Of a stretch of DNA of 64,000 nt, positions 50,985-64,000 are shown one piece after another. Numbering within the stretch: position 1 is the first letter of the stretch; every line of letters begins with the position of its first letter. Origin of the DNA: Nitrospirota bacterium (GTDB lineage Bacteria; Nitrospirota; Nitrospiria; Nitrospirales; Nitrospiraceae). The notes under the pieces were generated by a model. The model was given only the letters and a program-made list of their open reading frames with translations. It ran no database searches and was not told the DNA's origin. A program made the translations under genes and the position numbers. The stretch covers positions 64,001 through 128,000 of the forward strand of contig CAVPGK010000010.1 in assembly GCA_963703955.1 (NCBI GenBank), read 5' to 3'.

Positions 50985-51668
50985 ATGGGGCCACCCTCTG
51001 TGACGTTCCTGTTCGATGTGGACAATACCTTGCTCGATAACGATCGAGTCGCGGCCGATCTCAAGCGGCATTTAGAACGCGAGGTCGGTCACGAGCGACA
51101 AGAACGCTATTGGGCGATCTTCGAAGAGTTGCGGACCGAACTCGGCTACGTCGATTACCTGGGGACGCTCCAGCGCTATCGGGTCGAGTGTCCGCGCGAC
51201 TCGCATCTGCTGACAGTCTCCCGATTCCTGGTGAACTATCCGTTCGCCAATCGCCTGTTCCCCAACTCGCTCGATGTGATCGAATACTGCAAACAGTGGG
51301 GTCCGGCGGTCGTTCTGTCGGACGGCGACGTTGTCTTTCAGCCGCGCAAGATTGAGCGCTCAGGATTGTTCGATGCCGTCGACGGTAACGTGCTCATTTA
51401 CATTCACAAGGAGCATGAACTGGACGACGTGGAGCGACGGTATCCCGCCCGACACTATGTCCTGGTAGATGACAAGCTGCGCATCCTGGCCGCGGTGAAG
51501 AAAGTGTGGGGCTCTCGGGTGACGACCGTCTTTCCCCGCCAGGGGCACTATGCTCGAGATCCGCAGGCGCTGGCAATGTACCCCGCGGCGGACGTGACCA
51601 TCGAGCGCATCGGTGATCTAATGGGCGTTGACCTGCCGAGATTGCTGCCCACGGCAGGAATGCCGTGA
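50985..51668 (+). CDS. HAD-like hydrolase
   Basis: Motif I FDVDNTL, LSDGD, HK and VDDK. Confidence 0.87.
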   Translation: MGPPSVTFLFDVDNTLLDNDRVAADLKRHLEREVGHERQERYWAIFEELRTELGYVDYLGTLQRYRVECPRDSHLLTVSRFLVNYPFANRLFPNSLDVIEYCKQWGPAVVLSDGDVVFQPRKIERSGLFDAVDGNVLIYIHKEHELDDVERRYPARHYVLVDDKLRILAAVKKVWGSRVTTVFPRQGHYARDPQALAMYPAADVTIERIGDLMGVDLPRLLPTAGMP

Positions 51669-51741
51669 CATTTCATCTCGCCGCCGTTGTACCTTCGATC
51701 GCTTGCTAGCGATCTCAATTTGGACCACTGTTGGAATTTCC

Positions 51742-52176
51742 TCGAAGGCAAGAAGAAGCAGGAACGTGGCTTTAAGGTCTTCAAGCTGGCTGAGTCGAAC
51801 TTCACACCCTGGGATACCGAAGCGGCCACGGAGGCCGAGTCGCTGGCCAAGCAGCTCGAACTGCACATCCGCCACGCGCGCGATGGCCGTACCGAGCAGG
51901 ATCCTCTTTGAGCTTCTGCTCAAAAGCGGGTTTCCGCTCACCATGCCGGTGGAGACGCTTCAGCTTGCCGGCAAGACCGTGCACGGTGTGGCAAACGGAG
52001 CACTGTTCATCTGCCTGGAGCGTGAACTGACCCTCGAACTGATCCGCGCCATGGCCGACAAGAAGCCCGAGCGCGTGGTCTGCCTCGACGAAGGCTTTGC
52101 CGGAAACGACCAGCTCAAGGCGAACGCCGTGCAGATCTTCAAGACCAAGGGCGTCACCAGCTTCAAGACGGTGTGA
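51742..52176 (+). pseudogene. mod: Type III R-M methyltransferase (Mod), C-terminal remnant
   Basis: GFKVFKLAESNF...ILFELLLKSGFPLT...VVCLDEGFAGNDQLKANAVQIFK; catalytic DPPY and FxGxG motifs absent. Confidence 0.85.
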
Positions 52177-52181
52177 GGCCG

Positions 52182-52442
52182 ATGCCCACGATCAGCACAT
52201 TCTTCGGGATCGTGATTCAGATGTTCTGGCGGGAGCACGGGCCGCCGCATTTCCACGCGATCTACGGCGAGCATGAGGTCGTGATCGACATTCGGGAACT
52301 GCGCGTGACGCGTGGGTCCCTTCCACGTCGGGCACTGGCTCTCGTGCTAGAATGGGGCGCAGAGTACCGCGAAGAGTTACTGGAGGACTGGGATCTATGC
52401 AGCCAATTAAAACCACCCAAGCCAATCCCGCCCCTGGAGTAG
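52182..52442 (+). CDS. DUF4160 protein (putative HicA-like toxin)
   Basis: MPTISTFFGIVIQMFWREHGPPHFHAIYGE...GSLPRRAL..VLEW...PIPPLE. Confidence 0.88.
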   Translation: MPTISTFFGIVIQMFWREHGPPHFHAIYGEHEVVIDIRELRVTRGSLPRRALALVLEWGAEYREELLEDWDLCSQLKPPKPIPPLE

Positions 52443-52735
52443 TGCCGGCGCCTCAGCCATCCGTGGCCTGGCGGGTCATGGCCGTCGAGCCGCATCCTGA
52501 CATGCGGCTTCGCGTGCGGTTCATCGACGGAACGTCCGGAGACGTGATGCTCCGCACCTTCCTTACCAGCCCACGGGTTGACGGCACGATCTTCGAGCCG
52601 TTACGAGACCCTGAGGTCTTCCGACAGGTCCGGGTCGAGATGGGCGCTATTGCCTGGCCGAACGGTGCGGACCTTGCTCCGGATGCCATGTACGACGCCA
52701 TTCGGACCCACGGACATTGGGTGGTCGAGGAGTGA
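52442..52735 (+). CDS. DUF2442 protein (putative antitoxin)
   Basis: LRVRFIDGTSG...IFEPLRDPEVFRQV...IAWPNGADLAPDAMY; GTG start overlaps the upstream TAG. Confidence 0.85.
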   Translation: MPAPQPSVAWRVMAVEPHPDMRLRVRFIDGTSGDVMLRTFLTSPRVDGTIFEPLRDPEVFRQVRVEMGAIAWPNGADLAPDAMYDAIRTHGHWVVEE

Positions 52736-53609
52736 AACTCCAGTTCGATCCCAACCAGTCCTTCCAGCTCGACGCGGTGGCTGCTGTCACAGACCTCTCT
52801 GGGATCGGATCAAGCCGAAGACCACCTACCGCGTGGAGTTCGAGACCGACACGCTCGTGGTGCGCGCGGTGGACGCCATCAAGCGCATGGAGAAGATCGA
52901 AGCGCCGAAGATCCACGTCGCCGCAGGGCAAGTCCAGGTGGCAAAGGGTGGGGTGATCACGACTGCCATGAGCGTCGCTGAGGAGCAGCCTGTCTACCTC
53001 GTGCGCGCGCTACCGGATATCCTCGCCTACCTCCAGAACGAGACTGAGCTGACCCGCTCGACGCTTGTCCGCATCCTCAAGGAGTCCGGGCGCCTTGCGG
53101 ACGTGTTCCTGAACCCGCAGCGCTTCCTCGACCAGGTGGCGGCGATCCTCAAGCATGAACTGCATCGCTTGCTCGTGGACGGCATCAAGTACGAGCGGCT
53201 GCCCGGCACCGGTGCGGACACCGAGTGGGAGATGCTGCTCTTCAAGAACGAAGAACTCGTCAACTACCTGGACGCATTGCAGGTGAATAAATCGGTTTAC
53301 GAATATGTAGTCTACGAGTCGGAGGTAGAACGCGCGTTCGCAAAGAAGCTTGATGAGCGCGAGGACATCAAGCTCTTCGTGAAGCTTCCCGCTTGGTTCA
53401 AAGTGGATACCCCGGTGGGCGAGTGTAACGCCGACTGGGCCATCGTCAAGCACGACGGCCAAACGCTCTATCTCGTGCGCGAGACGAAGGGGACACGGGA
53501 CTTCCTCAAGCTGCGGACCACCGAGGCAGACAAGGTGCGCTGTGGCCAACGGCACTTCGAAACGCTCGGCGTGCCCTTCGCCGTCGCTGTGTCTGCCGAC
53601 GAAGTCTAA
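52732..53609 (+). pseudogene. res: Type III restriction subunit (Res) with the helicase core deleted
   Basis: MKLQFDPNQSFQLDAVAAVTDL joins at about 52797 to LWDRIKPKTTYRVEF...ESEVERAF...KLPAWFKVDTPVG..NADWAI..VRETKG (endonuclease region); no DEAD-box motifs. Confidence 0.85.
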
Positions 53610-54703: not shown

Positions 54704-56149
54704 TCATTGAGGCGAAACCGCGTTGTACTCTGTCAATTCATAAGCCGACTGCGAGATCAACGGAGTTTTGGCAGCCTCCGTCTCCAAGTCCCGTAGAAGC
54801 CGTTGAAACTCCTTGTCGTTCCGGATGAGACGGGACGCGGCCAGGAGCAGGTCGTCGAGTTGATGATCGGTCAGCGCCAGATTCGTGGGAATTTTCATGA
54901 CGCGCGCCTGCTCCTCCGGATCTTCCAACTCCGACAAACTGACATTGATGAAGTAAATGTCGGCATCGGGCGTGAAGACACTCGGACCGGTCTGTGCTCG
55001 CTGGCGGAGTTGTGCCCGCCATAGTTTGACGGCCTGACCCATCAGTTCGAAGGTGTCGTCGGAGTACCGATTGATCGGGATGTCGATCAAGGCGTTCAAC
55101 ACCCGCGTGAGGCTGGGAAGTTCATCCAGTTTGTACTGGTTCACATCCGGATGGGTCTCCGCGCTCACCATCAGGTAGACGAGTTTCCGGATTGTTTTCA
55201 CCCCGAGCACCTGGAACGAGGCTTCGACGTCCTCAACGAGTGCGGCTAGCTCTAACACACTGCGCATGCCGATGTTGTCAGCCAACGCGCCGTCCAACAG
55301 ATGGATGTACGGGCGCTTCTCGGCATCGAGATACGACCGCAGCTCGGTCGCGCGCCTTCGGCCCCACGAGGTCCGGCTCTCCGCGCTAATGTACCGCGGC
55401 GGGTCAAATCCGCACTGCCCGGCGTAGTTCTTCAACGAAAGGGGACTGAGGATCAAGGGGAGTGCGCTCGATGCGGCGGTCGCAACCGACAGCGGCAGTT
55501 TGCTGAGATCGGAACAAATCAGGTCGAACTGTCGCTGGTTGAATTCGAACCGCGAGACGGTTGCCATGTCGGAGGCATGAAGGAAGATGATCGGCCGCTG
55601 ATCACTTGAGACGAGGTCATTGAACGTGTGCCGGTCGAACAGCGCTTCGTCCAGCAATTCGGAAAGGATGTGGGCACGGCCGAAATAGGGGGACAAGAGC
55701 CGTAGCCAATTTTTGGGAGACCGCAAGATCCGCGCGCGAAGTTCGCTCTCCCAATCTTTCCGAAGAAAGCGATATTCGAAGTCATGAAAAATGCGGTCGT
55801 GATAGAGCGCATAATACGCCGCCGTGAAGCTGCCGCCCGATAAGGCATTGATGATATTGATTTCGTCGACCAGTCGCTTCCGATGGCCTTCCCACACGAT
55901 CGGTGTCCGGGCCAGTTCCCGCAACACGCCGTAGGAGAGCGCTGACGCCCGCGCGCCGCCACCGGAGAAAGAGGCCACAATAAAGAAACTGTCCGTGCTG
56001 CCGGCCACGGACGGAGGGAGGTTGGCGTAACGATACCCGTAGGCAGGATTCCACCGAGGAAGCGGAGCGTTCATGGTGGGGCGCACATACTCGCAGCCGA
56101 GCGTCAGGCTCAGCAGAGCGATCAATAGCCATACGCCTGCCTGCTTCAT
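54704..56149 (-). CDS. Patatin-like phospholipase lipoprotein, paralog 1
   Basis: Lipobox LTLGC; SGGGARA, ALSGGS nucleophile and DGALADN. Confidence 0.88.
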   Translation of the reverse strand: MKQAGVWLLIALLSLTLGCEYVRPTMNAPLPRWNPAYGYRYANLPPSVAGSTDSFFIVASFSGGGARASALSYGVLRELARTPIVWEGHRKRLVDEINIINALSGGSFTAAYYALYHDRIFHDFEYRFLRKDWESELRARILRSPKNWLRLLSPYFGRAHILSELLDEALFDRHTFNDLVSSDQRPIIFLHASDMATVSRFEFNQRQFDLICSDLSKLPLSVATAASSALPLILSPLSLKNYAGQCGFDPPRYISAESRTSWGRRRATELRSYLDAEKRPYIHLLDGALADNIGMRSVLELAALVEDVEASFQVLGVKTIRKLVYLMVSAETHPDVNQYKLDELPSLTRVLNALIDIPINRYSDDTFELMGQAVKLWRAQLRQRAQTGPSVFTPDADIYFINVSLSELEDPEEQARVMKIPTNLALTDHQLDDLLLAASRLIRNDKEFQRLLRDLETEAAKTPLISQSAYELTEYNAVSPQ

Positions 56150-56723
56150 GAGTTGGGGAAGGTTACAAAGCAGAGAGACGGGTGTCAAGGTACCCAAGAA
56201 CTGGCATGATTGACAGGGTATTCTCTTCACTGTGCACTTCAGATGCAACCTTTTGCTTGCCCGTCATTTTGCTACCTCTCCGCTACCAGAACGGGACAAA
56301 CCAGCACGATCAGGGGGGACCATGATGGATCCCTGTCGGGCCGCAAGACACCACAGATCTAAGGACGCGCGATCGATCGCTATGGCTACCTTTGACTCTT
56401 ATCTTTTGGATGGTCGAGTTCGAAGTGTCCGGCAATGCGTCACGATTCGAGGGGGAAGGGCCGGCTATTGTTCCCCGCAACCCAGACGGTACATGAGCTG
56501 GGATGACGCCATCTCTCGTCGCCTCTCACGGTGTCGGGGAGGTCGAAGCCTGTTATAGAACCCTATGAATCAAAAAGCCTGGGTCCGTAGAAGAGTCCAG
56601 CTCCTGCGCCTCGTTGCTCAAAATGTGAAGACTCACTTCGTGATGGGAAACTCGACAAGGACCGTGTCTTCATGCCGGATGGCGATGAGTTTCATCAATG
56701 GTGAGTCGGCGCATCTTCATTTC

Positions 56724-57440
56724 TCACGCTTTCGGCGGGACGCAGTTCTGTCCCCCCCGCTCTGTGCACAACCTGAACCGGGCTTGCTCCGCCCAGAACT
56801 CCAAGGTCTTGTAGACGTCATCCCAGGAATCAAACGAGTCCGGATCCAGGCGTTTCTTGCCGACACGCCGGTCGGCTGAGGCTCCCAGTACCTCGCCGGT
56901 TTGAGCATCGGAGATCTTCATTTCGATGCTGGCGTCCCCGACAAAAAGAGGCTTCCCGGTTCCGAGGTCTTTGAGCAGCGAGCCGAGGGCGAAGGCGTTC
57001 ATGGGAGCGGGGATGGTTGAGACAGCGCGCAACACCACATAGGCGGGGTCCGCTCTCGTGATCGCGGCCTGAATGCGCAGAGTATTCGGGCCAGGCTCAG
57101 AAACCATTTCGTAGTCTTTCGACAGGCTGAGGTAGGCAAGGCCGTAGAGGATATCAGCGATATGTTGGGCGTTCTTTTGCCGAGTCACATCGGTGGTAGG
57201 GGGACCCCAGACCTGGGCATGATCCAAGAGCATCTTCTTGTAAGTCCCGCGTGGAATGGTGGCAACCTTGGGGTTCTTGTAAAGCAGGAGCGCTTCCCCC
57301 TTTTCGCCCTTGTGCATCAGCGGGTAGAGATCGCCAAGGAAGCCGGATGTTTCAACCGACCGAGCCTGCTTGGTCGGCGCACATCCGATGAGCAAAGTCG
57401 TCAAGACAAGAACCACAAGGATGCGGGTAATAGCAATCAT
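56724..57440 (-). CDS. DUF3313-like lipoprotein
   Basis: Lipobox LLIGC; ETSGFLG, PGPNTLRIQAAIT and DAQTGEVLGASADRR. Confidence 0.8.
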   Translation of the reverse strand: MIAITRILVVLVLTTLLIGCAPTKQARSVETSGFLGDLYPLMHKGEKGEALLLYKNPKVATIPRGTYKKMLLDHAQVWGPPTTDVTRQKNAQHIADILYGLAYLSLSKDYEMVSEPGPNTLRIQAAITRADPAYVVLRAVSTIPAPMNAFALGSLLKDLGTGKPLFVGDASIEMKISDAQTGEVLGASADRRVGKKRLDPDSFDSWDDVYKTLEFWAEQARFRLCTERGGQNCVPPKA

Positions 57441-57695: not shown

Positions 57696-58316
57696 ATGAC
57701 GCACTCGGCTCAGATAACCATGTTGGTCGGGTTGGTGCTGACCGCCGGTGTGCTGACCGGCTGCGGGGGAGCCTCAGTCTATGCACGGGCCGCCAAGGCT
57801 CAAGCCAGCGAGTTGAATGTCTTGGCCCAAGCGCGCGACGACAGATTGAAGATGCACCTGCGCGAGGCGATCCTCGCCGACCAGGCCTTATCCGCTCTCA
57901 CCATTGCTCCTTACGTGTTCATGGAGCGCGGATTCGTCGTCGGACACGTCGGCAGCGCAGAGCAGGCTGAAGCCGTGCTTCGCGCCGCTCGAGGTGTGTC
58001 AGGCCTCCGCTCAGTAGACGGGTACCTTCCGGTCAAGCATTCCTCTCCGCAAACCAGTGTTGTGTCGAATACCGCCTCCGACGCGACGATCACGGCCGAA
58101 ACTAAGTCGGCCCTCGGGCTTGCTGGAGTTGTTGTGAGGCGGGTCAGCGTAGAGACGTTTGATGGGCAGGTCGTGTTGCTCGGGGTGGTATCCTCCGAAC
58201 AGGAGCGACTCCAAGCCGAACGAGCCGCGGCGGGTGTGAACGGCGTTCATGGCGTCACAAACTGGCTGTTGTTGCCGGAATCCGAATATTCGACGGTGCG
58301 GCCAAAGCTCAGGTAG
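57696..58316 (+). CDS. BON-domain lipoprotein (two BON domains)
   Basis: Lipobox LTGC; DDRLK..., and DATITAETKSAL..VSVETFDGQVVLLGVV..AAGVNGVHGVTN. Confidence 0.85.
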   Translation: MTHSAQITMLVGLVLTAGVLTGCGGASVYARAAKAQASELNVLAQARDDRLKMHLREAILADQALSALTIAPYVFMERGFVVGHVGSAEQAEAVLRAARGVSGLRSVDGYLPVKHSSPQTSVVSNTASDATITAETKSALGLAGVVVRRVSVETFDGQVVLLGVVSSEQERLQAERAAAGVNGVHGVTNWLLLPESEYSTVRPKLR

Positions 58317-58326
58317 GTTGGATAGG

Positions 58327-59697
58327 ATGAACATTCTTCGTTCCTCGGTCGTTGCACTCATGTTGGCGGCCTTCACCGGGTGCGAGTATGTCCGGCCTAC
58401 CCTCAATGCTCCACTTGAGCGGTGGGATCAACGGTACGGGTACCGGTACACCAATTTCCCTCAAGCTCCTGACGGCAGCACGGACAGCCTTTTTTTCGTG
58501 GCCTCGTTTTCGGGCGGAGGCATGCGCGCCTCGACCCTTGCCTACGGGGCCTTGCAAGAACTCGCCCGCACGTCGATCATGTGGGAAGGACGCCAAGAGC
58601 GCCTGCTCGATGAACTGAGCATCGTCACGGCGCTGTCCGGCGGCAGTTTCACGGCTGCCTACTATGCGCTGTATGGCGATCGGATCTTCCACGACTTTGA
58701 ATACCGTTTTTTGCGGAAAGATTGGGAACACGAGCTCAAGTCTCGGATGTTCTGGTCGCCGTACAACTGGTTCCGTCTCTTATCCCCATATTTCGGTCGC
58801 ACCCACATCCTGTCGGAACTCCTGGATGAAGCCTTGTTTGACGGCCATACCTACGGCGACCTGCTGAGACGTGGTCACCAACCGATGGTGTATATCCACG
58901 CCTCCGACATGGCCATGCTGTCCCGCTTTGAGTTCAACCAGCGTCAGTTCGACATCATCTGTTCGGACCTCAGTCAACTGCCGATCGCCACGGCGACCGC
59001 CGCCTCCAGCGCCCTTCCCTTGCTCCTCAGCCCAATCTCACTGAAGAACTATGCCGGGCGCTGTGGATACCAGCCGCCGCCGTGGTTACAAGAAGCACAC
59101 AAGACCGCGACGGGGCAACAGCGGGCCAATGAGCTCCGGTCCTACTTCGATTCGAAGAAGCGTCCGTATGTCCATCTGTTGGACGGTGGGTTGGCAGACA
59201 ATGTCGGGATGCGGAGCATGGTGGAGACGGTTGCACTCGTGGGAGATGTTGAAACACTGTTTAAGGTCCTCGGGGTCAAGACGGTCCGAAAGCTGGTCTT
59301 CCTGGTGGTGAGGGCGGAAACTCTCCCGGATATGTCCTCCTACCAGTTCAGTAAGATTCCGTCTCTCTCTCGAGCGTTGGATGCGCTCGTTGACATCCCG
59401 ATCAATCGATACTCCATTGACACACTCCACCTCATGCGTCTGGGTGTGGATGGGTGGAGGACTGAACTCCGACACCGAAAGCAGAACACGGAGAGCGTGT
59501 TTGCGCCTGATGCCGACGTGTATTTCATCAATGCCAGTCTGAGTGAATTGGAGGATGCGGACGAGCGCGAGTATCTCATGAAGATTCCGACGACCCTGCA
59601 GCTCAATGATGAACAGATCGATCGGCTGCTCGCCGCTGCGACTCACCTGATCCGCAATGACCCGGATTTTCAGCGTCTGATGCGTGACCTGCAGTAG
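58327..59697 (+). CDS. Patatin-like phospholipase lipoprotein, paralog 2
   Basis: Lipobox FTGC; SGGGMRA, ALSGGS and DGGLADN; colinear with paralog 1. Confidence 0.88.
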   Translation: MNILRSSVVALMLAAFTGCEYVRPTLNAPLERWDQRYGYRYTNFPQAPDGSTDSLFFVASFSGGGMRASTLAYGALQELARTSIMWEGRQERLLDELSIVTALSGGSFTAAYYALYGDRIFHDFEYRFLRKDWEHELKSRMFWSPYNWFRLLSPYFGRTHILSELLDEALFDGHTYGDLLRRGHQPMVYIHASDMAMLSRFEFNQRQFDIICSDLSQLPIATATAASSALPLLLSPISLKNYAGRCGYQPPPWLQEAHKTATGQQRANELRSYFDSKKRPYVHLLDGGLADNVGMRSMVETVALVGDVETLFKVLGVKTVRKLVFLVVRAETLPDMSSYQFSKIPSLSRALDALVDIPINRYSIDTLHLMRLGVDGWRTELRHRKQNTESVFAPDADVYFINASLSELEDADEREYLMKIPTTLQLNDEQIDRLLAAATHLIRNDPDFQRLMRDLQ

Positions 59698-59736: not shown

Positions 59737-59828
59737 GTCGGCGCATCTCGCTCTCACGCTTTCGGCGGGGCGCAGTTCGGTCCCCCCCGGCTCTATGCAC
59801 AACCTGAACCGAGTTTGCTCCGCCCAGG
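59737..59828 (-). repeat. Diverged direct copy of the DUF3313 gene 3' end (56706-56798)
   Basis: CTCACGCTTTCGGCGGG..GCAGTTC.GTCCCCCCCG..TGCACAACCTGAACCG..TTGCTCCGCCCAG occurs at both loci. Confidence 0.85.
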
Positions 59829-59883: not shown

Positions 59884-60177
59884 TTATGATGCTTTTGCCG
59901 GTCTCTTGTTGAATTCCATTTGGACACGCTCCGCCACAAATAATTTGAGTAGCGTCTGATATGGCACGTCATGTTTATTGGCTAGTATCTTCAGTTGTTC
60001 TAGCAGCGACTTTGGGAGTCGCAGGGAAATAGTTTCAGTTGAGGGTTTTAAACGAGGAAATAGCGTCCGTTTCGCTTTCGAATAATCAACATAGTCCGCC
60101 GAATCGTGTGTGGACCAGAAGTCGGACTCCTGCTTTTCATTCTTGAATTTCGGCATCTTTTTTAGTTTGCTCATCAT
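59884..60177 (-). CDS. BrnA/CopG-type antitoxin
   Basis: PKFKNEKQESDFWSTHDSADY...ISLRLP..LK..A...VPYQTLLK (ribbon-helix-helix). Confidence 0.88.
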   Translation of the reverse strand: MMSKLKKMPKFKNEKQESDFWSTHDSADYVDYSKAKRTLFPRLKPSTETISLRLPKSLLEQLKILANKHDVPYQTLLKLFVAERVQMEFNKRPAKAS

Positions 60178-60457
60178 ACCTGCTCCGTTCCTTCTTGCTC
60201 ATGTCCCTCGCCGAGATAACCCGAATGCGTTGATTCCTCACTGTAAAGACGATGAAAAGGAGGCGGCCCGTGTCAGTCCTTCCTAATACGAAATACCGTC
60301 CCTCTGCGACCGAATGCCGAATATCCTCAGTCACAACCAGAGGTTCATTGAAAAATACCTGCTCACATTCTGGAAGCGTGACGTGATGCTTCTTCCAGTT
60401 CTTTGTCTGGTTTCCTTCGTCCCAATCAAATCCCTCAAGCCTTGCGAGGTCGTTCAT
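60137..60457 (-). CDS. BrnT family toxin
   Basis: FDWDEGNQTKNWKKH, ECEQVF, HS..E.R...LG and IRVISARDM motifs. Confidence 0.9.
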   Translation of the reverse strand: MNDLARLEGFDWDEGNQTKNWKKHHVTLPECEQVFFNEPLVVTEDIRHSVAEGRYFVLGRTDTGRLLFIVFTVRNQRIRVISARDMSKKERSRYDEQTKKDAEIQE

Positions 60458-60677: not shown

Positions 60678-60788
60678 TGGTCACGTTAACCACCCACTCA
60701 GCGCCATGGCAACGATCTATCCGTCATCCAAAGGTTCGTTCCCTGGTTAGCGCAGCAGTGCGGTTTGATCGGACCGGGAAGAGACCAC

Positions 60789-63294
60789 ATGCCTCCGGAA
60801 AACTTCGATGTGTTTCTGAGTTACCACTGGCGTGATCATGCACCTGTAGAAGCGCTTGCACGACGGTTGCGCGAGCAGGACCTCACGGTCTTTCTCGACC
60901 GATGGTATCTCACGCCGGGGCAATCATGGCCGAAGGCATTGGAGGCGACCCTTGCGCAATGTCGAGCGGTGGCCGTCTGCATCGGGCAGGGCGAAATGGG
61001 ACCGTGGCAGCAGCGGGAGCAATATCTCGCGCTGGAGCGGCAGGTGGCGGCTGAGCGCCGTGGTCAACACTTTCCCGTCATTCCCGTTCTGCTCCCCGGC
61101 GCAGAACCGCCGCTGGGGTTTCTCAGTCAAAATACCTGGGTCGATTTGCGCTCGCGTGTCGACGATCCGACCCTGCTCAACACGCTCGTCAGAGCCATAC
61201 ACGGCCAGTCGCCTGGCCCGGATGCGCAAGAAACGATCCGTGAGACGCTCACCAGCATCTGCCCCTACCGGGGCCTCCTTTATTTCCGCGAGGAGGACGC
61301 CCCATTCTTTTTTGGACGTGAAGAGGCCATCACTGAGCTGGTTCGCGCCGTTCAGCAGCACAGCCTTGTAGCGGTTGTCGGGGCCTCGGGCAGCGGGAAG
61401 TCCTCGGTCGTGAGGGCAGGACTCGTGCCGACTTTACGGAGAAGTCGTGAGCGAGTCTGGGAGGTGGCCACCTTCGTGCCGACCGATCGTCCGATCTATT
61501 CGCTCGCAGCAGTGCTCATGCCGTTCCTCGAGCCGGACATGAGCGAGACCGCCCGGTTGATAGAAACGAATAACCTGGTTGATGCCCTGGTGGAAAGGAA
61601 AGTCAAGCTGCGCGATGTCGCTGATCGCCTTCTTGCGAAGCAGCCCGGCACAGACCGGCTGCTCCTCATCGTTGATCAGTGGGAAGAGTTGTTCACGCTC
61701 TGTCAGGACGACGCCGCACGCCGGTGCTTCATCGACAGTGTGCTGGATACCACGGCCACGACGAGGGTGAGCGTGGTGCTCACCCTGCGAGGAGACTTTT
61801 TGGGTCGCGCCATTACCGCCTATCGGCCCCTGTCGGATCGTGTGCAAGGCGCCCAAGTGAACTTAGGGCCGATGAATCGGGAGGAATTGCGCCTTGCCAT
61901 CCAAGAGCCGGCACGCCAAGTGGGGCTGACGTTTGAAGCAGGCCTCATCGATCTGATTGTGGAGCAAGCCGGTGACGAACCCGGCCATTTACCCTTGCTT
62001 GAATTCGTGCTTCGGCAGCTCTGGGAGCAACGGCGAGGAGGGGAACTTCACCATGAAGCTTACAAGGCCATGGGGCAACTGCATGGCGCCGTCGCCCAAA
62101 AAGCCGAGGCTCTGTACGAACGATTGAATACGCAACAACAACGAGCCCTGCATAGGATTTTCATGCGTTTGGTTCGCCCTGGCGAGGGCGAGGCGGATAC
62201 GAGACGACGGGCGACCTTCGCGGATCTCGGCGAAGAGGCGCGACCTCTAGTGAAAACACTCGCCGATGCGCGATTGTTGGTGACTTCCCAGCGTCAAGGC
62301 AGTGCGCAGGAAACGATTGAGGTGTCGCACGAGGCGTTGATCCACCATTGGAAGCGACTCGAAACGTGGGTGGACGCGGACCGCCCATTTCTCGCCTGGC
62401 AACAGGGGCTGAACGTGGCGATGAAAGCGTGGGAAGACCAGCAAGGGGCACTCCGATTTCTTGCTCCGCGGGCGTCCGCTGGACGAAGCGTTGGATTGGC
62501 TCCGGAAAAAGTCCGAGGAACTCTCGCCACGCGAACGAGAGTATCTGGCGGCCAGCAAGAAACGCAAGATCAGAGAGCGCGTTGTCGTCGCTATCGCCGC
62601 CAGCCTCGTCCTTGCGCTGGTTGGTTGGCCGATCGCTTGGTTGTGGAAGGAAGGGGTAACGGTCCAATATGCCTGGTCGGTTCTGCGGGTGAGGTTGCCT
62701 CTGGTTCAGGTCCCCGAACCGGAGATGGTGCCAATTCCCGGTAAGCCGTATGCCATGGGGCGCTACGAAGTCACCTTTGAGGAATACGATGCGTATGCAA
62801 GATTAACCGGGCGACGAGTGCCGACCGATCACGACTGGGGTCGAGAGAAGCGTCCCGTGATCAACGTGTCGTGGGAGGATGGAGTGGCATACGCGAAGTG
62901 GCTGTCACAAGCCACGGGTAAACGTTACCGACTGCCGACAGAAACCGAGTGGGAGTATGCGGCGCGAAGCGGAGGGAAAAACGACATCTGGCCTGGAACC
63001 TCAGACGAGAGTCAATTAAAGGACTACGCGGTGTACAACACAGATCGCACAGAGCCTGTCGGCGGGAGAAAACCCAACGCTCTCGAGCTGTATGACATGA
63101 GCGGGAATGTGTGGGAGTGGGTGCAAGATTGCTACGACAAAGCGTATGAGGACAACTGCCGCCTGCGGGTGATCCGCGGTGGGTCCTGGCTCGGCACTCC
63201 GGAGGACTTGCGTGCCTCGAACCGGAATGGGGCCGACGCTGGCGACCGGGTCGGCGCCATCGGCTTTCGTCTGGCCCAAGACCGTCCGCAATAA
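60789..63294 (+). CDS. DGR target: TIR - STAND (nSTAND1-type) NTPase - TM - FGE-sulfatase/C-type lectin-fold protein (one frameshift near 62448)
   Basis: TIR FDVFLSY..VFLD..WQQRE; CPYRGLLYFREEDAPFFFGRE, Walker A GASGSGKSS, Walker B LIVDQWEE, LPLLEF and SHEALI..W; then LLRGRPLDEA, a TM helix, and FGE motifs YEVTFEEY, RLPTETEWEYAAR, LYDMSGNVWEW and RVIRGGSW...IGFRLA. Confidence 0.9.
63166..63282 (+). other. Putative DGR variable region (VR) and IMH
   Basis: 3' end of the CLec domain, RVIRGGSW-LGT-PEDLRAS-N-R-NGADAGD-R-VGA-IGFRLAQD. Most variable positions are NNC codons (CTC GGC GAC AAC GCC GAC GGC GAC GTC GGC GCC), as expected from AAC template codons. Confidence 0.75.
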
Positions 63295-63375: not shown

Positions 63376-63735
63376 ATGATGGCTTCCACCGTGCCCCAGG
63401 CCGTGCAATCGTGCCATGACCTGCTCCTGTGGCTGATTCCGCAGCTCGACAATTTCCGCGCTCGCGCCGGTTCACGCTGGGTGAACGAATAGAAGCCGGG
63501 GTGCTCGACGTGCTGGAGCTGCTCGTTGAAGCGGCGTATACGCGCACCAAGGAGGCAGCGCTGCGGCGCGCGAATCTGCGGCTGGAGGTGGTGCGCCACC
63601 TGTGGAGACTTGCCCACGAACTGAAGGTCATGGCGACCCGCCAGTACGAGCATGGGGCGAGGTTGATCGACGATCTTGGGCCGGCAGATCGGCGGCTGGC
63701 TCCGCAGCCGGGACACCTCGCAGGCAAGCACATGA
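63376..63735 (+). CDS. avd: DGR accessory variability determinant Avd (four-helix bundle; compensating indels near 63451 and 63679)
   Basis: Not in the ORF track. Reconstructed as MMASTVPQAVQSCHDLLLWLIPQLDxFPRSRRFTLGERIEAGVLDVLELLVEAAYTRTKEAALRRANLRLEVVRHLWRLAHELKVMATRQYEHGARLIDDLGRQIGGWLRS..., with FP..R..LG..I and GRQIGGW signatures. Its TGA overlaps the RT ATG. Confidence 0.88.
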
Positions 63736-64000
63736 AACGGCTCGGCGGTATCTTGGCCACAGCTGGTGAGTTTCGAGAATCTACTCAGCGCGTATCGCAA
63801 GGCGCGGCGGGGCAAAGGCGGCACGTCTGGCGTGGCGGAGTTCGGCCTGGATCTGGAGCGGGAGCTAATCGCACTGCAACGCGAGCTGCAAGAACGGCGA
63901 CTATCGGCCCGGGGATTACCGCCTGTTCACGATCTATGACCGCAAGCCGCGTGTCATCGCGGCGGCGCCGTTTCGCGACCGGGTCGTGCACCACGCGGTG
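63732..64000 (+). CDS. DGR-type reverse transcriptase, 5' part only (extra bases near 63753 and 63895)
   Basis: Not in the ORF track. Reconstructed as [28 protein letters not shown]...[53 protein letters not shown] (N-terminal RT blocks). The YxDD motif lies outside the window. Confidence 0.88.

Follow-up and report, generated by a model that had tools for sequence, protein, structure and literature searches.

The window analyzed here, a 64,000-nucleotide stretch of a Nitrospirota genome (contig C10, positions 64001 to 128000; genome of 3.3 Mb, 82% complete), carries close to its end the target gene of a diversity-generating retroelement (DGR). To judge from the aligned sequences, this gene is a single open reading frame (ORF) across its family, coding for a TIR domain, an nSTAND1 NTPase, a hydrophobic helix, and a C-type-lectin (CLec) domain (Table 1). 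It is a real feature and adds a member to an already predicted kind of system. The reading as a whole, that of a Nitrospiraceae effector-nSTAND1-FGS conflict system in which one inner-membrane receptor acts through the steps proposed below, the break in the assembled gene is likely an artifact, and the variable repeat is old, we hold to be somewhat better than even. The locus is ordered target-avd-RT-TR, and the contig sequence places part of the DGR beyond the end of the window. The best relatives at the target gene come from Nitrospira or Nitrospirales, and the full-length protein that served as reference (L043) has a 100% identity match in a genome of the same family.

Table 1. Features of the DGR locus (coordinates in the window unless prefixed by C10).
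Feature	Coordinates	Strand	Basis and remarks
DGR target gene, TIR-nSTAND1-TM-CLec	60789..63294	+	About 833 aa; one extra base interrupts it in the assembly
TIR domain	60810..61157	+	PF13676 (TIR_2), residues 8-123, E 1.9e-22
WQQRE motif with Glu77	61017-61019 (Glu77)	+	Motif location
nSTAND1 NTPase and helical domains	61263..62444	+	PF20703, residues 159-552, E 1.6e-122
Walker A, GASGSGKS	61380-61403	+	Motif location
Walker B, LLIVDQWEE	61662-61688	+	Motif location
+1 frameshift, one extra base	62437..62448	+	DNA alignment with 10 relatives; G4 run at 62445-62448
Single predicted membrane helix, KKRKIRER in front	62581..62646	+	Hydropathy 2.46; K/R 6 before, 1 after
Amphipathic helix after the membrane helix	62650-62697	+	Predicted model
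FGE-type C-type-lectin (CLec) domain	62719..63291	+	PF03781 (FGE-sulfatase), second frame, E 8.1e-42
Cys pair of CLec	63130, 63157	+	Sequence
Variable repeat VR1	63163..63279	+	Comparison with TR
Pyrimidine-rich non-hairpin element directly past the stop codon	63292..63325	+	Conserved in relatives
avd accessory gene	63376..63735	+	PF22296 (bAvd), E 9.2e-12; 2 indels in the assembly
DGR reverse transcriptase (RT), 5' part	63732..64000	+	RVT_1; YVDD retained; 8 indel events; continues past the window end, up to about C10:128823
Template repeat TR	C10:128814-128930, outside the window	+	Follows the RT; 32 adenines, mostly in AAC codons

A preliminary description of this DNA had proposed that the TIR, STAND, membrane-spanning, and CLec parts form one protein, and the family bears this out. 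Among 79 loci retrieved with the N-terminal part, 32 are Nitrospirota records, of which 28 are informative. The target runs uninterrupted from the TIR domain to the end of the CLec domain in 16 of the 32, and one more is open at a contig end; the others comprise 11 broken copies (stop, frameshift, or truncation), three that are uninformative (contig end or N gap), and one with a second TIR domain instead of the CLec domain. TIR_2, nSTAND1, and FGE are all present in 99 of the 120 best homologs from a protein search scored with Pfam. In the window gene, the HMM check proposed earlier matched TIR_2, nSTAND1, and FGE-sulfatase, and the WQQRE motif, both Walker motifs, and the helix lie where the preliminary description had put them.

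In the window, the coding sequence occupies two frames (ORFs 60765-62744 and 62461-63294), parted by the one base that is extra relative to 10 relatives. Separate TIR-STAND and CLec proteins, named beforehand as the case that would undo the proposal, are excluded at the family level, since the gene is fused in relatives and none of the 32 Nitrospirota loci is broken at codon 552. The one-base break near 62445-62448 is, on these alignments, no natural split. A programmed or otherwise natural division into TIR-STAND and TM-CLec proteins could appeal to a possible ORF start at TTG 62461, but the fusion of these parts in the family contradicts it. The break also interrupts a helical region that is conserved, and the product of the upstream frame would finish with about 100 residues read out of frame; we regard such a division as very improbable.

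The origin of the break in this genome was approached through the background of frameshifts in the assembly, against which the proteins encoded in 58 regions of a complete relative were compared. Of the 293 orthologous genes, 23 are frameshifted; the 304 kb compared hold 27 events, or 0.089 per kb, and a gene of 2.5 kb thus has a 0.20 chance of one such event. The suggestion from an early small sample that assembly errors are mostly insertions was dropped, as the larger sample is balanced (14 insertions and 13 deletions), and an argument from excess insertions is thus valid only locally. Such a local excess is seen in the avd-RT stretch, where there are 10 indel events in 1.4 kb, nine of them insertions, well above the background rate of 0.089 per kb (Poisson P 2e-16). 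When the RT is read against an intact frame, no nonsense codon appears and two of 224 residues invariant among six relatives are changed (1 to 8 in the relatives), and the target is changed at 11 of 351 invariant sites (3 to 16 in relatives), which is no excess of decay; gapped codons were set aside in these counts. The many indels without substitutions in avd and the RT favor a locally poor consensus over neutral decay, and we conclude that these indels are probably assembly errors. For the break in the target gene itself, assembly error is the most likely origin, and we place fair confidence in it. Six sequencing runs, none of them of RNA, contained at most 0.12 of the sequence words, and four that were mapped to all contigs gave no coverage at 62430-62650. 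We note a second frameshift-dense patch at about C10:135900-137800, where the ORFs are in several pieces; we take these ORFs to resemble glycerol kinase and glycerol-3-phosphate dehydrogenase genes.

The contrary explanation, which concerns this copy only and leaves the family as described, is that the gene is a real and recent pseudogene in a dead DGR, with frameshifts that lie in the chromosome. We consider this possible, with the balance against it. The extreme indel density of avd and the RT can be read in its favor, as can the background chance of only 0.20 for a gene of this length, and true loss of function is common, since 11 of the 28 informative Nitrospirota copies are broken; an avd remnant is all that is left of the avd and RT genes in seven loci of relatives, with the target intact in some. 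Neutral decay would not be expected to leave ten indels without a single nonsense codon and with so few changes at invariant RT residues, nine of the ten are insertions, and the ORF lists indicate that unrelated genes a few kilobases downstream are apparently fragmented too. The variable repeats and the CLec fold, considered below, bear on the same question.

The C-terminal repeat of the target has the marks of a DGR product at the sequence level: the TR/VR pair is adenine biased, the RT and Avd genes adjoin, and the VR lies at the C terminus of a CLec-fold target. Of the 32 TR adenines, 20 are changed in VR1, against nine of the 85 non-adenines (Fisher P 4e-8), in keeping with the earlier claim that the DGR is directed at the C-terminal CLec domain. 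The RVT_1 match directly after avd is the only one in the genome. Diversification is plain in the family, with an entropy of 2.95 bits at 19 TR-adenine codons compared to 0.67 at the other 20 (120 homologs), and about 2e18 VR peptides are possible from the TR.

The preliminary description also took this copy to be hypervariable at present, which is not supported, as VR1 is stale relative to the TR. In six relatives where avd, the RT, and the TR adjoin, each VR has 13 to 24 adenine differences and 0 or 1 non-adenine difference, and the non-adenine total over all six (1 of 506 sites) contrasts with the nine of 85 in VR1 (P 2e-7). None of these nine VR1 differences alters the encoded protein, whereas the share of synonymous changes expected is 0.38 (P about 2e-4). 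An excess of non-adenine differences, all of them synonymous, implies that VR1 drifted from the TR under purifying selection on the protein, and VR1 thus appears to be an old, selected variant with no recent rewriting. Up to 11 non-adenine differences are reported for some DGRs, and more in Lineage 4, in the accessible parts of Wu et al. (PMC5758913); noncanonical mutagenesis is a poor fit for VR1, however, because it would not be limited to synonymous sites. No TR among seven taken from relatives is a better fit for VR1 than the TR of this genome, and neither a second RT nor a better-matching TR was found in the genome (82% complete). The staleness of VR1 suits a pseudogene, but the exclusively synonymous character of its non-adenine changes speaks against one.

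Two further VRs are present in the genome. VR2 (C10:130002-130117) is an orphan with 16 adenine and five non-adenine differences and one 1-base gap; it has no gene in front, sits just after two small toxin-antitoxin-like genes, and suggests a remnant of a second target. VR3 belongs to a remote TIR-FGE target on contig C21 (132478-133650, minus strand) that has no evident membrane helix and is broken by an in-frame stop and a frameshift. VR2 and VR3 have five non-adenine differences in common, which suggests an earlier TR. The gapped orphan VR2 and the broken C21 target can also be counted toward a pseudogene in a dead DGR. Among relatives, one target gene ends in TR sequence plus the TR 3' flank with avd and the RT missing (L021:3620-3760), an apparent recombination of VR by TR that removed both genes. 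Another locus (L110:9306-11060, genome G023) has a repeat after the RT that looks half TR and half VR, together with a strongly diverged target VR, and looks like a decayed or chimeric DGR.

The pyrimidine-rich element past the stop codon of the VR gene consists of repeated CTTT(G) units and recurs after VR2 (C10, about 130127), after VR3 (C21), and after most VR genes of relatives. It is absent after seven TRs. No hairpin was found after the VR, where predicted folds are weak. The element is a candidate homing or recognition signal.

The catalytic residues of the TIR and nSTAND1 domains are kept, as far as sequence conservation shows. The glutamate of WxxxE-type motifs is the catalytic residue of TIR NADases. 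Glu77, the candidate catalytic glutamate of the preliminary description, corresponds in an alignment to the glutamate of WPQKE in the PDB 3h16 TIR domain and is conserved in all 117 homologs with a residue at that position. The Walker A and B motifs, earlier described as intact, are likewise conserved, with K204 in 119 of 120 homologs and D296, E299, and E300 in 120 of 120. The structure predicted for an intact relative (pLDDT 70.5, pTM 0.38) gave fold matches to FGE-fold proteins and to STAND proteins (RPP1 core, Apaf-1, and Avs4); a homodimer prediction for residues 1-450 scored 0.00 and carries no weight either way.

Topology was scored by hydropathy scan only, in which a membrane helix was a 19-residue segment of hydropathy ≥1.6 after nSTAND1. 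The CLec pattern matched 79 of 121 sequences, and the 42 partial or nonmatching ones were dropped; the resulting counts come from homologs, which are kin and not independent. The helix is present in 78 of the 79, Lys and Arg are richer before it than after it in all 79, and a Cys pair flanks a loop before the VR in 78; among more distant homologs, the pair occurs in four of five forms with a membrane helix and in neither of two that lack one. The helix, the positive-inside charge, and the Cys pair favor a periplasmic CLec domain, so that the extracytoplasmic placement suggested earlier is supported, and we infer that the TIR and STAND domains are cytoplasmic. Alternatively, the hydrophobic and amphipathic helices could form a re-entrant anchor and leave the CLec domain in the cytoplasm as part of a membrane-tethered, NLR-like intracellular sensor. 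An amphipathic helix does follow the membrane helix in both models, and the accessible text of PMC10907252 describes the nSTAND1 targets of its DGR 6 as predicted to be cytoplasmic. The next hydrophobic segment reaches at most 1.39, however (mean, 0.90; 79 sequences), and neither the charge pattern nor the Cys pair, kept in 78 of the 79 and absent from the two helix-less forms, fits such an arrangement, which we judge to be quite unlikely.

Structure prediction of the CLec domain, also proposed in the preliminary description, gave a pLDDT of 87.9 and a best fold match to TvpA (PDB 2y3c, E 8.8e-17). The window CLec is without a beta-hairpin, having nine residues where 76 homologs have 17 to 45, the shortest hairpin region of all those scored. 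This in-frame loss can be counted toward a pseudogene, but the shortened domain still folds well in the model.

At a cutoff of E ≤1e-100, 40 of the 300 genomes of the family have a match; the distribution is patchy, and the count includes other nSTAND1-FGS types. In other phyla, the TIR-nSTAND1 core carries WD40, TPR, or S8 tails, mostly after a hydrophobic segment; one core with such different tails suggests that the outer tail is a swappable module. We also note a TIR-nSTAND1-TIR variant (L033:6001-8442) in which a second TIR domain replaces the TM-CLec part. ORF clustering over 33 loci found no conserved partner or defense gene beside the family. PADLOC returned only weak TIR-level and P-loop matches, with no defined Avs model matched, and the partners of Thoeris, TIR-CBASS, and SPARTA (ThsA, cyclase, and short Argonaute) were not found in the locus.

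The neighbors in the window are BrnT/CopG and patatin lipoprotein genes. A BrnT toxin and CopG antitoxin pair (59884-60457, minus strand) lies directly upstream of the target, and the ORFs downstream of the DGR presumably resemble HicAB and Mla-type transporter genes; toxin-antitoxin-like pairs are present on both sides of the DGR. Two divergent patatin paralogs farther upstream (54704-56248, minus strand, and 58249-59697, plus strand) are 72% alike over 707 nucleotides; their lipoprotein-like N termini suggest that they are exported, and no tie to the DGR locus is established. A repeat of roughly 75 nucleotides is found at 56722-56796 and 59752-59827, and type III restriction-like remnants with a RE_endonuc domain (51628-53609) are interrupted by a small gene pair.

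We propose that the periplasmic CLec pocket, varied by the DGR, would bind something foreign or non-self, for example a protein or glycan from a phage or a predator, and that ligand binding would cluster the receptors. The STAND domains would then exchange nucleotide and oligomerize, and the TIR domains brought together in this way would consume NAD+, leading to dormancy or death of the cell in its aggregate. The ligand, the coupling across the membrane, the oligomerization, the NADase output, and the immune role are all proposed by analogy to known systems, and a kin-recognition role, also raised in the preliminary description, may be envisaged in the same way. In its fullest form, the proposal is of a single-chain periplasmic receptor for non-self that draws on a DGR repertoire and signals through one helix to a STAND-TIR NADase, with a useful variant subsequently fixed and the RT shed, and with a 3' element that may mark homing. 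We offer this form tentatively and would sooner doubt it than rely on it. If true, it would describe a mutationally adaptive immune receptor of nitrifiers that form aggregates, one that acts when cells touch or when phage DNA enters, or before such entry.

A nonlethal role in signaling or adhesion would instead have the CLec domain bind surfaces or neighbors in the aggregate, with the STAND-TIR part regulatory, either through a nucleotide messenger or as a protein scaffold. Intact targets outlast loss of the RT, as this would allow, and the closest solved fold, TvpA, is that of what we take to be a surface protein. In the accessible parts of a preprint by Roux (bioRxiv 2020.04.01.020958), most cellular DGR targets are membrane anchored and are read as cell or particle binding. 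The invariance of Glu77 and the Walker motifs fits poorly with such a role, conflict genes are typically, as here, patchily distributed and often broken, and no conserved receiver of a downstream signal was found beside the gene; we therefore consider this alternative unlikely.

DGR-diversified CLec sensors on STAND proteins as bacterial adaptive receptors are a published idea, for which this clade offers a test system. A single gene of about 870 codons combines the effector, the NTPase, the membrane helix, and the variable sensor, and the clade provides roughly 100 natural variants, NAD+ loss as a simple readout, and at least six genomes with an apparently working DGR adjoining. The clade could reveal whether a STAND protein can be switched on from across a membrane. 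The window copy, broken in the assembly and without recent diversification, adds little alone, and its intact relatives are better material.

Several known systems invite comparison. TvpA of Treponema denticola is also a DGR target with an FGE-type CLec domain, but it lacks TIR and STAND domains; we take it to be a surface lipoprotein. Animal Toll-like receptors join an outer sensor made of LRRs to a cytoplasmic TIR domain through one membrane helix, and the proteins described here share this general plan. They differ in that the chain order is reversed, a CLec domain replaces the LRRs, a STAND domain is interposed, and the TIR domain is probably enzymatic, such that the resemblance is one of analogy only. 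Avs and the bacterial NACHT proteins are treated in a preprint by Kibby et al. The accessible text of that preprint (bioRxiv 2022.07.19.500537) names FGS-type "antigen receptor" sensors, with the term "antigen receptor type," and considers that TM-bearing forms may sense periplasmic signals. The effector-STAND-sensor order is the same as in these proteins, and the fold matches include Avs4. The tested Avs and bNACHT proteins have repeat or short sensors and are shown to protect against phages, whereas the sensor here is a CLec domain past a membrane helix, and any phage protection by it is a proposal.

Precedents in print are also found in STAND-FGS proteins and clade 5D DGRs. Kaur et al. 2021 (PMC8195603), in the parts accessible, describe DGR-linked STAND-FGS proteins with TIR and other effectors, with nSTAND1 named, and propose them as hypermutated receptors and potential analogs of adaptive receptors; Kaur 2020 (PMC7159879), likewise available in part, is a further work that we compared. 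The source data for Figure 2 of the 2021 paper hold 38 occurrences of TIR+nSTAND1+FGS, and its source data also list nSTAND1+TM+FGS and EAD7+nSTAND1+TM+FGS in Chloroflexi and DrHyd+nSTAND1+FGS in Nitrospira. The exact string TIR+nSTAND1+TM+FGS is absent from the 10 "TM+FGS" matches in one source file of PMC8195603. The proteins described here resemble those of PMC8195603 in joining an N-terminal effector (TIR among them), a central nSTAND1, and a C-terminal FGS domain in one chain, with an RT and a four-helix accessory gene adjoining; they differ in that FGS is treated in the accessible text as an intracellular sensor, whereas a membrane helix and Cys pair are near universal in this clade.

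In the accessible parts of Doré et al. 2024 (PMC10907252), clade 5D DGRs diversify CLec domains on nSTAND1 or NACHT proteins, some with TIR; one NACHT target is predicted to have its CLec domain in the periplasm, some loci are described as degenerate or remote, and Nitrospira marina is listed with TIR and FGE genes adjoining its RT. The target of the window DGR is likewise a CLec domain on an nSTAND1 protein with TIR. The cytoplasmic nSTAND1 targets predicted for DGR 6 in PMC10907252 work with an EAD8 adaptor and a separate protease, and the present proteins are unlike them in that effector, NTPase, membrane helix, and sensor form a single chain. STAND-linked CLec domains are described there as lacking experimental characterization, and our literature searches, with most subscription papers outside their scope, brought up no experiments on any STAND-CLec protein. 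The claim that this is a little-characterized new system is not supported, as both the effector+nSTAND1+FGS+DGR arrangement and the idea of an adaptive antigen receptor are already in print in the accessible parts of PMC8195603, bioRxiv 2022.07.19.500537, and PMC10907252.
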